Source: an uncultured Gammaproteobacteria bacterium
GTDB lineage: Bacteria > Pseudomonadota > Gammaproteobacteria > DRLM01
NCBI GenBank assembly: GCA_963729605.1
Contig: CAVSNY010000006.1
Span: forward strand, 224,001 to 288,000
Direction: 5' to 3'
DNA: 64,000 bases
In this document: piece by piece, positions 590 to 41,774 of the stretch
How positions within the stretch are numbered: position 1 is the first letter of the stretch
Layout of the letters: every line of letters begins with the position of its first letter
The notes under the pieces: model-generated
The model's database searches: none
What the model was told of the DNA's origin: nothing
The model's input: only the letters and a program-made list of their open reading frames with translations
Translations under genes and position numbers: made by a program

Positions 590-745
590 GGAGCCTATCT
601 CATTCATTGTGAGAGGTTCTGAGAGTCAAGGGGCATCTCCTTGGCGCCCTCACCCCTACCCTCTCCCGCCCGCGGGAGAGGGGGATACATTCTCCGCGCA
701 GCCGCATCTAGATACCCTATCCTCTCCCGCCCGCGGGAGAGGGAG
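590..745. repeat. Cluster of palindromic REP-like elements between convergent genes
   Basis: CCCTCTCCCGC-CC-GCGGGAGAGGG at 659-682 with a near-identical copy at 720-743; separate hairpin GAGCCTATCTCA...TGAGAGGTTCT at ~591-620. Confidence 0.8.
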
Positions 746-2986: not shown

Positions 2987-3234
2987 CGACGCCGTCCCTC
3001 TCGGCGCGCGCGGGGGGCGCCACGCTGGAAAATCGCGTCTTTTACGGTACACTGTGAAACCATGTAGCGGTCCTTTATCGTCGCGGTCTTGGAGGGAAAA
3101 CGTCCCCGCCGCGCAAAGGCTTATACCATAGCAAAACCGGCGGGGCTTGCGATGATTTAACCGGCGATGCGTTATGCGGCGGCTCGGACTTGAAGGCGAA
3201 TCCCGGCAGTGAGTACATCCCATTAGGAGCAGAC

Positions 3235-4763
3235 ATGGATTTTACGGTAAAGAGCGGCACTCCCGACCAACAACGCGGCGGGTGCATCGTGCTGGGGGTC
3301 GTCGAGCCGCGCCACCTCTCGGCCGCGGGTGAACAAGCCGACGCGGCGGCCGGCGGTTTCATCTCGCAATTGCTGAAACGCGGCGACCTGGACGGCAAGC
3401 TCGGCCAGACCCTGTTGCTCCACAACGTGCCCAACCTCGCCGCCGAGCGGGTGCTGCTGATCGGCTGCGGGCCGGCCAAGGAATTGGCCGACGGCCATTA
3501 TCGCAAGGTCGTCGCCAAGGCCGCCGCCGTCCTCAACGAGATGGGCGCCGGCGAAGCGGTGAGTTATCTCACCGACCTGCCGGTGAAAGGCCGCGACAGC
3601 GCCTGGAAGGTACGCCAGATCGTGGAGAGCACCGAACACGGCCTTTACCGCTTCGATCAATTGAAGAGCAAAAAAGACGAGGCCCGCCGGCCGCTGCGTA
3701 AACTGGTGATCAACGTCGCCGAGCGCGGCGAACTCGCCGCCGCCGAAGAAGCGCTGCGGGTCGGCAAGGCCGTGGCCCACGGCATCAAACTCACCCGCGA
3801 CCTCGGCAACCTCCCCGCCAATATCTGCACGCCGCGTTATCTCGCCGACCAGGCCCGCGCCCTGGCCAAGCGCCACAAGTCGATCAAGGTCGAGGTGCTG
3901 GACCGGTCGCACATGGAAAAACTGGGCATGGGCTCGCTGCTGGCAGTGGCGCGCGGCAGCGAGGAACCGCCCAAACTCATCGTCGCCCAGTATCGCGGCG
4001 GCCCCAAGGCCGACAAACCGGTGGCGCTGGTCGGCAAAGGCGTGACCTTCGACACCGGCGGCATCTCCATCAAACCGGCCGCGGCCATGGATGAGATGAA
4101 ATACGACATGTGCGGCGCCGCCAGCGTGCTGGGCACCCTCGCCGCCATCGCCGAGCTGGGCCTGGCGATCAACGTGGTGGGCATCATCCCCGCCACCGAA
4201 AACATGCCGAGCGGTATCGCCATCAAACCGGGCGACGTGGTGACCAGCCTGTCGGGGCAGACCATCGAGATCCTCAACACCGACGCCGAGGGCCGGCTGA
4301 TCCTCTGCGACGCCCTCACCTACGCCGAACGTTTCGACCCGGCGGCGGTGATCGACATCGCCACCCTCACCGGCGCCTGCGTCATCGCCCTCGGCAAACA
4401 CGCCTCGGGCCTGATGGGCAATCACGACCCGCTGATCAACGAACTGCTCGACGCCGGCAACGACACCGGCGACCGCGCCTGGCAACTGCCCTTGTGGGAC
4501 GACTACCAGGACCAGCTCAAAACCAATTTCGCCGACATGGCCAACGTCGGCGGGCGCGAGGGCGGCACCATCACCGCCGCCTGTTTCCTGTCGCGCTTCA
4601 CCAAGAAATTCCAGTGGGCGCACCTCGACATCGCCGGCACCGCCTGGGTGAGCGGCGATAAAAAAGCGCCACCGGCCGGCCGGTGCCGCTGCTCACCCAA
4701 TTCTTGATGGCGCGGGCGGCGAAACGGGGTGCGAAGACTCCGGCCGCTAAAAATAAAAAATAG
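3235..4763 (+). CDS. pepA: Leucyl aminopeptidase PepA (apparent 1-nt deletion near 4666; corrected end 4763)
   Basis: GKGVTFDTGG, MKYDM, NTDAEGRL, AHLDIAGT motifs; the conserved tail ATGRPVPLLTQFL continues in another frame; AGGAG RBS. Confidence 0.93.
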
Positions 4764-4812: not shown

Positions 4813-4908
4813 CCCTCCCCCTTTAGGGAAAGGGCCAGGGTGGGGGGGCGAAGGCGGATTCCTCCGTATCGCCCCCCATTCCAACCTTCCGCCTGCAAGG
4901 GGGAGTGG
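4813..4908. repeat. Inverted doublet of REP-like palindromes
   Basis: CCCTCCCCCTTTAGGGAAAGGGCCAGGGTGGGGG faces CCCCCATTCCAACCTTCCGCCTGCAAGGGGGAG; GGGGGGCGA/TCGCCCCCC pair. Confidence 0.7.
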
Positions 4909-5522: not shown

Positions 5523-5874
5523 CGATCCGAACGCAGTCTCCCCAACCGCCGCGGGCATCCCGCCGGTGTTGCGGGACATTGTCGTGCCCGGACCAGACCA
5601 ATCCATTCCGGTACTCGACCCATCCCAGGCGGTGGCCGAGGCCCTGCCCTTCCTCTCGGCGGAGGCGGTGGCGGAGCTGGCCGACACCCTGCAACTCTCG
5701 CTCACCCGCGAGTTGAATTACGCCATCGACGGCGCGGTGTACGAACGCCTGCGGGTGGCGATGGAAGAGGTGGCCAGCAGCGTGAAACAGAATCTTCATC
5801 AACAACTGGAGCAACTGCTCCCCGAACTGGTACAGGCCGCGCTGCAACAACAGCTCAAACAAAAAGACCATTGA
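5515..5874 (+). CDS. Hypothetical protein (IPVL motifs, helical C-terminus) between holC and valS
   Basis: Overlaps the holC stop, co-oriented, acidic helical sequence. Confidence 0.75.
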   Translation: MSDDPNAVSPTAAGIPPVLRDIVVPGPDQSIPVLDPSQAVAEALPFLSAEAVAELADTLQLSLTRELNYAIDGAVYERLRVAMEEVASSVKQNLHQQLEQLLPELVQAALQQQLKQKDH

Positions 5875-5935
5875 TTAATCCGCGCCGCCGCGAGCAGCGA
5901 CCCACATATTTTTTTTCGTTCAACCCGGACCCTCC

Positions 5936-8878
5936 ATGGACAAGACGTACAATCCTCACGCCATCGAACAACATTGGTATCAGACCTGGGAACAAAACGG
6001 CTACTTCGCCCCGCAAGGTGTCGGTCCTGGTCCTTTAAACAACTCCCCTCTCCCCGGCCCTCTCCCGCCTGCGGGAGAGGGGGAGTATGTAAAGAGTGAA
6101 TTGACTGGCACCTATTGCATCATGATCCCGCCGCCCAATGTCACGGGCAGCCTGCACATGGGCCACGCCTTTCAAGACACCATCATGGACGCGCTGATCC
6201 GTTATCAGCGCATGAACGGCCGCAACACCCTGTGGCAGCCCGGCACCGACCACGCCGGCATCGCGACGCAAATGGTGGTGGAACGCCAGCTCGCGGCGCA
6301 AGGCAAAAGCCGCCACGACCTGGGACGCGAGGCCTTCATCGATGCGGTGTGGAAGTGGAAGGGTGAATCGGGCGGCACCATCACCCGCCAATTGCGCCGC
6401 CTCGGCGCCTCGCTGGACTGGTCGCGCGAACGCTTCACCATGGACGAGGGTTTATCGGACGCGGTGCGCGAAGTGTTCGTGCGCCTGCATGAAGAAGGTT
6501 TGATCTACCGCGGCAAACGCCTGGTGAACTGGGACCCGGTGCTGCACACCGCGGTGTCCGATCTCGAAGTGCTCTCCGAGGAGGAGAACGGCAGCCTCTG
6601 GCATATGCGTTATCCGCTCGCCGACGGCAGCGGCCATCTGGTGGTCGCGACCACCCGACCCGAGACCCTGCTGGGCGACGCGGCGGTGGCGGTGCATCCC
6701 GAGGATGAACGTTACAAGCACCTCATCGGCAAACAGGTGAAACTGCCGTTGGCCGAACGCTTGATTCCCATCATCGCCGATGACTACGTCGACAAGGAAT
6801 TCGGCACCGGCTGCGTGAAGATCACGCCGGCGCATGACTTCAACGATTATGCGGTGGGGCAGCGCCACGGTTTGCCGCTGATTAACATCTTCACAAAGGA
6901 TGCAAAGATCATCGGCCCACTCTCTAATTTCGAATTTGATACTCGACATCAACCCGGACGCCAGGTATTGGTCGATGACGCACCTGATGGTAAGTTTCCT
7001 GACGAAATCATCCCGGTGAAATATCACGGCCTCGACCGCTTCGAGGCGCGCAAGCGCGTGGTCGCCGATCTCGACGCGGCGGGGCTCATGGAAAAGATCG
7101 AACCGCACAAACTCAAGGTGCCGCGCGGCGACCGCAGCGGCGCGGTGATCGAACCGTTGCTCACCGATCAGTGGTACGTGAAGGTCGCCCCCCTCGCGCA
7201 ACCCGCGATCGAGGCCGTCGAGAGCGGCGCCATCAAATTCGTCCCCGACAACTGGAAGAACACCTATTTCGAGTGGATGCGCAACATCGAGGACTGGTGC
7301 ATCTCGCGGCAGATCTGGTGGGGGCATCGCATTCCGGCTTGGTACGACGATCAGGGCAATATCTATGTCGCGCGCAGCGGCGACGAGGCCCATGCGCAGG
7401 CGCGCGCGCGCCACGGCAAAGATGTCGATTTGCAACAAGACGAGGACGTGCTCGACACCTGGTTCAGCTCGGCGCTGTGGCCGTTTTCCACTTTGGGCTG
7501 GCCGCAACAGACCGCGGAGCTGAAAACCTTTTATCCCACCAGCGTGCTGGTCACCGGCTTCGACATCATCTTTTTCTGGGTGGCGCGGATGATCATGATG
7601 GGCCTCAAATTCACCGGCGAGGTGCCGTTCCGCGAGGTCTACATCCACGGCCTGGTGCGCGACGCCCACGGCCAGAAGATGTCGAAGTCGAAAGGCAATG
7701 TGCTCGACCCCATCGATCTCATCGACGGCATCGATCTCGAATCGCTGGTGAAGAAGCGCACCAGCGGTCTGATGCAACCGGAGATGGCCAAGAAAATCGA
7801 ACAGGCGACGCGCAAGGATTTCCCGGCGGGCATTCCCGCCTTCGGCACCGACGCGCTGCGTTTCACCTTCGCCTCTCTGGCCACCACCGGCCGCGACATC
7901 AAATTCGATCTCGGCCGCATCGAGGGCTATCGCAATTTCTGCAACAAGCTGTGGAACGCCACCCGTTATGTGTTGATGAACACCGAGGGCCAGGACTGCG
8001 GTCTCGAGGGTGACGTGGAACTCAGCCTCGCCGATCGCTGGATACTCTCGCGGTTGCAGCTCGTAACCCAGCAGGCGCGGGAACATTGCGAGGCCTATCG
8101 TCTCGACCTGATGGCTCAGGCAATTTACGAATTCACCTGGAATGAATTCTGCGACTGGTATCTCGAACTCAGCAAGCCGGTGCTAAACGCCGACGACAGC
8201 AGCGCGGCGGCGCGGCGCGGCACCCGCCGCACCCTGGTGCAGGTGCTCGAAACCATACTGCGCTTGGTCCATCCGCTGATGCCCTTCATCAGCGAAGAGA
8301 TATGGCAACGCGTCGCGCCGCTGGCCGGCAAACAGGGCGTGACCATCATGCTGCAACCCTATCCCGACGCCGATGAAAAACTCGTCGATCACCGGGTCGC
8401 GGAGGAGATGGCCTGGCTGATGGAATTCATCCTCGGTGTGCGCAAAATCCGCGGCGAGATGAACATCCCGCCGCGCAAACCGCTGCCGGTGCTGTTGCAG
8501 AACTGGAGCGAGGAGGACCGCCGCCGCGCAGAAACGACGCGCAATTACAGCGGTTTTCTTTCATCGCTGGAATCGATTACTTTTCTTTCCGCCGACCAGC
8601 CCGCGCCCGACTCCGCCACCGCGCTGGTGGGCGAGATGAAGGTGTTGATCCCGATGACGGGGCTGATCGACAAAGAGGCCGAGTTGGCGCGCTTAAATAA
8701 AGAGATGGAAAAGCTGAGCAAGGATTTGGAGCGCGGCGAACAGAAACTGCAAAATCCCAATTTCGCCGACAAGGCGCCGCCCGAGGTGGTGGCCAAGGAA
8801 CGGCAGCGCATGGACGAAGTGCGCTCTTCTCTCGGCAAACTGCAAGAGCAACACCGGCGCATCAGCGCCATGTCATGA
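5936..8878 (+). CDS. valS: Valyl-tRNA synthetase with two insertions
   Basis: [26 protein letters not shown]-terminal coiled coil. Confidence 0.97.
6033..6094. repeat. REP-like palindromic element inside the valS reading frame
   Basis: CCCTCTCCCGC-CT-GCGGGAGAGGG at 6058-6081, same stem as the intergenic copy at 659-682; outer imperfect inverted repeat CTTTAAACAACTCCCC / GGGGAGTATGTAAAG. Confidence 0.85.
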
Positions 8879-41365: not shown

Positions 41366-41774
41366 TTAGAACCTATTTCAAAATCGACTTTGAGAGTAGT
41401 GGGTGGCTGCGATCGCCCATGACGATGGTTTATTTACCGACGGACCGTTAATCGGCTTGAAAACCCCGTTGCGGTTTCGAGGGAGGTTGAATAATCGGCT
41501 ACGCCCGGCCTCGTCCGTTCGATACAAAAAATCCCGGAACATATCCCCTCTCCCGCGGGCGGGAGCGCGGAGTCGTAGCCAAGCGCCCGAATGACCGTCA
41601 TCACTCCGCAAGAGCGCCTTTCTCATCTTTCCATTCCCTCACCCCGACCCGCTCGCGGGAGAGGGGGGCAATACCTAAGCGAACAAAGGGGCCAACTATT
41701 CCTGCTCTTTCCCGCCCGCGGGAAGGGGTCAGTCCGGTTTGGTGTCCCTATTCCAATCTCGAGACAGGCTCTAA
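41366..41774. repeat. MITE-like mosaic element bounded by imperfect terminal inverted repeats, containing three REP-like copies
   Basis: TTAGAACCTATTTCAAAAT versus ATCTCGAGACAGGCTCTAA (14/19 as inverted repeat); degenerate CTCTCCCGC..GCGGGAG copies near 41545, 41636 and 41705. Confidence 0.6.

Follow-up and report, generated by a model that had tools for sequence, protein, structure and literature searches.

A BoxC hairpin repeat in frame in a bacterial valyl-tRNA synthetase gene and its possible link to DUF559 nuclease cassettes

BoxC hairpin repeats of Escherichia coli, described also as PIT and TMECO, have been known since the early 1990s. The main text of Holder et al. 2015 gives a consensus for TMECO and presents the motif as always intergenic in E. 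coli K-12, with no mobility genes near it (PMC4666352). Repeats of other families are read in frame within housekeeping genes, those for tRNA synthetases included, in the cited sections of PMC3733652, PMC3184786, PMC2996986 and PMC2700814, and the Ssn nucleases with their NTS hairpins have been proposed to derive from a mobile element (in part of PMC11893778). In the present study we analysed a window, by which we mean a whole stretch of 64,000 nucleotides from an uncultured gammaproteobacterium (assembly GCA_963729605.1, contig CAVSNY010000006.1, positions 224,001 to 288,000), in which valS, the gene for valyl-tRNA synthetase (ValRS), carries a palindromic insert. The insert is one BoxC hairpin repeat, it is read in frame, and it is present in some relatives and absent from others. 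On balance we think it probable that it is a likely neutral, non-autonomous piece of a selfish element, lodged in a tolerant loop, and that in its full form this element consists of a putative Vsr-like nuclease gene (DUF559) with a BoxC unit on either side, the two facing inward. In the same genome bioF contains such a cassette, complete, in frame and with the hairpin subtype of valS, and full, scar, solo-repeat and empty states are found at that one bioF loop.

The repeat unit in valS and its copies

We compared the genome of the window (G000, 3.48 Mb) with 11 other genomes of its family (G001-G011). From GYFAP to YCIM the window ValRS has 42 residues and those of G004-G011 have 15, which gives an insertion of 27 codons instead of the roughly 25 residues estimated in a preliminary description of the locus made from the sequence alone. 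That description had otherwise correctly placed a dispersed palindrome in frame ahead of the HIGH-type motif of ValRS: the reading frame is uninterrupted, HMGH is intact and most orthologues, namely those of eight of the 11 other family genomes, do not have the insert. Two congeners have 35 and 33 residues in the stretch, with a variant of the BoxC repeat at the same valS site, and valS was not found in G003, a genome that is 75% complete. Among the ValRS N-termini compared, from 46 of 61 genomes, the repeat peptide is confined to the genus of the window. In-frame insertion, an intact host gene and absence from orthologues are the behaviour of Rickettsia palindromic elements (RPE), and the position of the copy inside valS departs from the intergenic position that describes BoxC in E. 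coli K-12.

The unit was tested against the BoxC/PIT/TMECO consensus CCCTCNCCC-N3-6-GGGNGAGGG-N3-GGGNGAGGG (from PMC4666352), of which the genome holds 44 exact copies and none of the reversed pattern; 12 pairs of units face inward within 600 bp. The pattern CCCTCTCCC-N4-8-GGGAGAGGG occurs at 89 sites in the 3.48-Mb genome and a looser one at 138, with none in two Markov-4 simulated genomes. The 6-nt-centre subtype seen in valS is the commonest of the genome (53 of 94 exact-stem copies) and bounds the DUF559 cassette of bioF too, and matches of 82-85% to the valS unit occur in intergenic DNA of E. coli. By its sequence the repeat belongs to a known family, BoxC/PIT/TMECO in E. coli and Gbem_R4 in Geobacter, and the exact TMECO match overturns the initial view of a lineage-specific, unnamed family. 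The repeat unit is a 36-nt tail-plus-hairpin, and neither the 24-nt stem nor an outer inverted repeat. The stem at 6058-6081 had been called identical to the copy at 659-682; the arms are, but one of the 24 bases, in the loop, differs. Further related copies pointed out near 720, 41545, 41636 and 41705 were all recovered (Table 1). The outer inverted repeat that had been drawn at 6033-6094 is visible; as the terminal repeat of a collapsed two-armed element it was rejected, since 5.8% of shuffled flank pairs reach the score of the valS flanks and just three of 30 arm pairs, all at one locus, have outer flanks that match. Of the terminal inverted repeats and target-site duplication that characterise miniature inverted-repeat transposable elements, the valS insert shows at most the borderline outer repeat and a 4-mer, and the unit is without a GTAG or CGTC tag.

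In the AlphaFold2 model, residues 30-56 of ValRS have a predicted local distance difference test (pLDDT) value below 50 and lie between a helix (7-20) and a strand (59-63); the insert is thus predicted to be a disordered loop, and its stretch is missing from the 1gax chain. At the level of nucleic acid, the region 6030-6097 folds with z = -3.9. The 28 residues before the insert are the conserved ValRS N-terminus, present in the 1gax chain too, and this N-terminus, together with five frame-keeping variants of the gene, argues that translation runs through the insert. A second variable ValRS segment, at residues ~322-355 (window ~6900-7000), has 54 residues against 24 in both congeners and resembles that of G004, a member of another genus; it is non-palindromic, with low pLDDT, and suggests that valS is a mosaic.

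The tolerance of this loop was explored with the 120 best matches to ValRS residues 1-110, a set biased towards long loops: the N-terminal loop has its usual length in 76 of them, a BoxC repeat in five and unrelated inserts in 21. Frame is kept in all five insert-bearing variants, whose loops have 37-46 residues compared with the usual 19. When ValRS was placed on a tree with the loop left out, the empty allele P0008 fell inside the carrier clade (100/99) and the hairpin subtype differed between sister sequences; valS again has the aspect of a mosaic gene. All this fits a repeat carried as a neutral passenger that changes readily. Unrelated inserts also use the loop, a hotspot that tolerates them, and therefore the valS peptide is likely neutral and not a useful new loop. 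The unrelated inserts (P0006, P0007, P0010-P0013, P0015 and others) are of two types, some of them tandem, and one type is, in the protein sequences, apparently bounded by repeated APQG, which may be a target duplication. Palindromic inserts occur at other places in the ValRS of relatives, namely a hairpin of 28 codons in G002 (L031) and an insert of 24 codons in G042 (L033) after EGxDC, and a C-run/G-run hairpin after KPILT in G006 (L017).

In a wider scan of 215 hairpins, those well inside recognised genes were located in valS, dnaE, mtnA, the gene of an Lhr-like helicase (two places) and bioF. The dnaE site (C5:198611) has 31 residues in eight of 11 genomes compared and 66-74 in G000, G003 and G001, and the mtnA site has 43-46 residues in six of 11 genomes and repeat-like inserts, of 57-100, in the other five. 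The early suggestion that the repeat makes new peptide loops in housekeeping proteins is therefore upheld as far as the insertions go, and not as regards their usefulness, the loops being likely neutral.

Table 1. Positions, in the window, of valS, its insertion and the copies of the repeat
Feature	Position	Strand	Remarks
valS, valyl-tRNA synthetase	5936..8878	+	980 aa, uninterrupted; TIGR00422 1186 bits vs cut-off 612
27-codon in-frame insertion in valS	6023..6103	+	one placement gives residues 30-56; both ends may shift by a few codons
BoxC/TMECO unit (hairpin + purine tail) in valS	6046..6081	-	exact consensus match, type B CCG second loop; 12 residues on sense strand
Hairpin core in valS	6058..6081	.	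9-bp stem, 6-nt GC..GC centre
Outer imperfect inverted repeat	6033..6094	.	borderline, probably no true terminal repeat
HIGH-type motif HMGH of ValRS	6155..6166	+	residues 74-77, intact, 3' of insert
Intergenic BoxC/TMECO unit	647..682	-	exact consensus match
Intergenic hairpin copy	720..743	.	22/24 identical
Three degenerate intergenic copies	41546..41728	.	21, 19 and 19 of 24
Divergent hairpin-plus-tail copy, related subtype	4813..4834	.	5' of valS gene cluster (C6:228813)

Elsewhere in the window, the open reading frame at 3190-4707 is that of a leucyl aminopeptidase (pepA-like), whose C-terminus departs from the one usual in the family, possibly through a frameshift or sequence error near 4660.

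DUF559 cassettes in bioF and beyond

The bioF gene of G000 holds a full repeat-DUF559-repeat cassette in frame, adding ~220 residues (G000:C7:684903-686717; L051:718-2529, minus strand). In BioF, Pfam recognises no domain besides the aminotransferase and DUF559, apart from a weak match to a related nuclease model, and the DUF559 domain, of ~110 aa, stands directly between the hairpin peptides. The nuclease keeps the motif E-x-D-G-x-x-H, has 3hrl as its closest solved chain (7e-28) and shows a ratio of non-synonymous to synonymous substitution rates (dN/dS) of ~0.1 compared with G005. The loop was followed through 17 genomes, of which 11 have 50-52 residues and three (G000, G003 and G005) the full cassette; G002 has one BoxC unit, G008 six extra residues and G001 13 extra residues that resemble two cassette borders joined. 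In the tree G001 nests among the full carriers (97/94), which points to loss of the cassette by deletion. The cassette is also carried by P0122 and P0126, which come from other assemblies.

Between G000 and G003 the nuclease differs synonymously at 4 of 93 codons, compared with 30 of 134 in the left part of bioF (p 1e-4) and 51 of 183 in the right part (p 9e-7). In the bio operon as a whole 187 of 739 synonymous codons differ (25%), compared with ~10% in five other genes. On these sequence comparisons, the bioF cassette and its flanks have different histories. It is likely that the biotin operon (bioB-bioF-bioH, L057 vs L058) was replaced by recombination in one lineage, and re-entry of the cassette into an imported bioF allele would be the simplest account. 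Recent transfer of the cassette as a reading of the low nuclease divergence is weakened by the control described below, and the bio operon may itself have moved.

The DUF559 tally of G000 comprises two full genes, one fragment between hairpins and a fourth, weak match (E 3e-4). The fragment lies between BoxC units (G000:C3:346240-346570; L053:1380-1740) in a cluster that resembles a contractile injection system; at the orthologous site of G003 (L082) the gene is intact. The orthologous intergenic regions measure 354 bp, with intact DUF559, in G003 and 119 bp, with the fragment, in G000, and share the same left flank; the intergenic DUF559 underwent an internal deletion between its hairpins. 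The second full gene of G000 is free-standing (G000:C5:69600-70850; L052), amid six copies of a different hairpin subtype, and a near-identical nuclease is present in G001.

Beyond this genus, a tree was built from 38 DUF559 loci, picked by score or long reading frame and hence a non-random set, of which 36 gave 37 domains. The preliminary description had stated that similar palindromes flank DUF559 genes, and this link is supported: a C-rich/G-rich hairpin lies within ~330 bp upstream or 300 bp downstream of 32 of the 37. The role of candidate mobiliser that it gave to DUF559 is one that we, too, infer. On the nuclease tree, genes with like hairpin subtypes group together (10 changes compared with 19 when shuffled), near-copies contributing to this figure. 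The three bioF nucleases group with one that lies inside a methyltransferase gene of another family (96/94), and all are bounded by the 6-nt-centre subtype of valS. In a sample of 296 genomes of the class, from which the own family, one unpublished and one unscored genome had been removed, DUF559 was detected in 34 of the 52 with at least four units and in 40 of the 244 others, counts that are uncorrected for kinship, genome size and GC; the BoxC count of G296 is inflated by poly-G/C runs. The family search missed the E. coli control even though ycjD is annotated as DUF559, and therefore the genome tallies are floors.

Among longer proteins, DUF559 gave 603 matches, and in the best 120 of them the domain is internal in 109, has a repeat peptide beside it in 97 and keeps E-x-D-G-x-x-H in 118; the repeat peptide was found in none of 1183 control windows. 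The hosts of the domain include MetRS, LeuRS, IleRS, one ValRS (in another loop), BioA and many methyltransferases. In-frame cassettes are common in restriction-modification genes (HsdM, HsdS, HsdR and Mod-type methyltransferases; L078, L079, L096-L101, L107), several of them in G163.

In E. coli K-12 the DUF559 gene ycjD adjoins fabI (NC_000913.3 near 1351200-1351760; L095:306-861), which we take to be the same gene as envM. The stop codon of ycjD falls within a degenerate BoxC hairpin, and an exact TMECO unit follows ~170 bp further on. The first sighting of BoxC is credited to the envM paper in the main text of PMC4666352, where ycjD goes unmentioned. A 2026 article, in the part cited here, gives ycjD an endonuclease-like fold but no known function (PMC12817139), and a profile link between YcjD and Vsr has been described (PMC1189080). 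Among the papers listed in searches of the open-access literature we found none joining BoxC to DUF559 or ycjD, and a flanking-gene table of Holder et al. may name ycjD; BoxC inside genes was likewise not found in print there.

Origin of the valS insert

We propose that the nuclease would bind its own hairpin and cut there or close beside it, the substrate probably being single-stranded or extruded DNA, in the manner of Ssn and NTS. Recombinational repair would then copy either a single unit or a complete cassette, to new sites or to alleles still empty. Within genes, an insert would persist only if it keeps the frame and falls in a loose loop, and cassettes would decay by deletion to solo units, of which the valS copy may be an example; we hold it about equally likely that this copy was left behind by a full cassette and that it came in alone. 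More tentatively, BoxC repeats may mark the ends of selfish elements of a class so far undescribed, in which a putative hairpin-recognising Vsr-like nuclease (DUF559; ycjD) would copy itself and miniature units by cut-and-repair and survive in essential genes as a translated loop or an extra domain without splicing, the valS loop being the footprint of such an event and the E. coli K-12 enzyme standing beside the locus of the first BoxC description. By analogy the closest working model would be Ssn with NTS, of a different fold, as presented in part of PMC11893778.

Several results weigh against the proposal that the valS insert derives from a nuclease-bearing element. At the valS site of the window no full cassette was found: a search that demanded an exact hairpin at a distance of 25-55 nt ahead of the PPPNVTG codons returned one match in a collection of genome contigs and one in a collection of metagenome contigs, one of the two (L093) being a short insert, and the pattern is strict, so that this is weak evidence of absence. 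PF04480 is listed for none of the best 120 ValRS matches, and the single ValRS with a DUF559 cassette (P0237) has it in another loop. Eighteen of the 52 repeat-rich genomes gave no DUF559 match. Between G000 and G003 the five other genes differ at 205 of 2113 synonymous codons, which is not significantly above the nuclease (p 0.10). At the DNA level, no target-site duplication was seen at the valS insert beyond a 4-mer common to the flanks, and the outer inverted repeat is borderline.

In the main rival account, which we regard as possible though rather unlikely, BoxC would need no more than host processes (fork stalling, slippage, illegitimate recombination) to spread and vary, DUF559 would recognise the units or ride between them without moving them, as Neisseria Ssn restricts incoming DNA at its own hairpins, and the valS copy would be a tolerated accident. 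Holder et al. proposed host recombination with slippage and tied TMECO to local instability, naming no mobiliser in the main text (PMC4666352), and SsnA has been demonstrated, in the relevant part of PMC11893778, to cut and to modulate transformation, not to transpose. That valS and bioF are mosaic through ordinary recombination, that target-site duplication is absent and that many repeat-rich genomes have no DUF559 match agree with this account as well; however, it accounts poorly for the presence, in host genes that are unrelated, of a single nuclease lineage whose ends match, for a cassette that is younger than the flank on either side, and for purifying selection on a nuclease embedded in bioF. 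A transposase acting in trans is a less probable agent still: the genome has one gene for a REP-associated tyrosine transposase (RAYT-like Y1 protein; C7:53-415, L055:1-640), with half a BoxC unit ~55 bp behind it, but the gene is followed by its own GTAG-type REP (five copies), whose tag the valS unit does not share, and the first 1.9 kb of C7, where the upstream side is lost at the contig end, contain no full BoxC hairpin.

Selection might maintain the insert, either for a function of the peptide loop or because a hairpin in the mRNA tunes valS translation, and its conservation in five related ValRS variants and a stable hairpin ~110 nt into the coding region could speak for this. We consider this very unlikely, for the length and sequence of the insert vary freely, sisters carry different hairpin subtypes, the empty allele P0008 sits within the carrier clade, and the same loop, predicted to be disordered, takes unrelated inserts. 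An assembly artefact, or an untranslated insert ahead of a downstream start, is next to excluded in our judgement. Repeats can be misjoined in assemblies and an in-frame TTG occurs at 6101; nevertheless contigs of two other studies span the insert (5850-6258 and 5850-6140, with five differences each), which disposes of the misassembly that the preliminary description had named as a possible refutation, four other proteins carry variants of it, and the residues upstream are those of the conserved N-terminus.

Taken by itself the valS loop adds one more example of something already known; its value lies in tying a named repeat to a candidate enzyme. What is new here is that essential genes contain BoxC in frame and that the repeat has a candidate nuclease as partner, one testable in E. 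coli K-12. If DUF559 cuts or moves BoxC, two open questions, those of BoxC and of ycjD, would be closed together, and a third hairpin-nuclease pairing would join REP/RAYT and NTS/Ssn, possibly as a family of small hairpin-specific nucleases with different specificities. Loops and entire domains could then be added to essential enzymes with no need of splicing, and many of the DUF559 fusion proteins recorded in databases would be invaded housekeeping genes, not functional fusions.

Comparison with known systems

The comparisons that follow extend to the cited parts of each source. RPE and the intragenic GTAG/CGTC REPs are likewise short palindromes in frame, adding 20-30 residues in what are thought to be flexible loops (PMC3733652, PMC3184786). 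The valS unit is of a different sequence family, without the GTAG/CGTC tag, and its candidate autonomous form is also in frame; RPE-4 and RPE-6 are CGTC repeats, unlike the valS unit (PMC3733652).

The EDxHD/Vsr-like homing endonucleases, such as I-Bth0305I, are Vsr-related nucleases and resemble the cassette, with its putative Vsr-like nuclease, in lying in conserved host genes with a history discordant with their flanks (PMC3239194). These enzymes have N-terminal NUMOD repeats and occur in introns or inteins or free-standing (PMC3239194), whereas the DUF559 cassette, of ~110 aa, has hairpin ends and no splicing domain was seen in it; Pfam revealed neither NUMOD repeats nor an intron or intein host in BioF, and no direct alignment of DUF559 to I-Bth0305I appeared in the search that matched 3hrl.

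With the intrastrand-triplex repeat BoxC/PIT/TMECO the valS unit shares the exact consensus, the type B second loop, dispersed multicopy occurrence and inverted pairs. BoxC of E. coli K-12 is intergenic and without a mobility gene, whereas here the repeat is in frame in valS, dnaE, mtnA, the helicase gene and bioF and brackets DUF559. The consensus of the Gbem_R4 palindromes of Geobacter bemidjiensis is the same tail-plus-hairpin unit (Aklujkar et al. 2010, PMC2996986, Table S6); in the part of Table S6 compared its copies are all between genes, the intragenic rows belonging to another family, and no nuclease link is given there.

The Ssn nucleases with NTS/SRM hairpins (Chenal et al. 2025, PMC11893778) are alike in that a small single-domain nuclease gene is flanked by hairpins found genome-wide, and such flanking by cognate hairpins is what we observed at the 32 DUF559 genes out of 37. 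Ssn is a GIY-YIG enzyme of demonstrated activity, whereas the partner here, DUF559 (PF04480), is a putative Vsr-like PD-(D/E)XK protein of predicted activity, and NTS are rarely located in genes (PMC11893778), whereas the DUF559 cassette is often in frame inside them.

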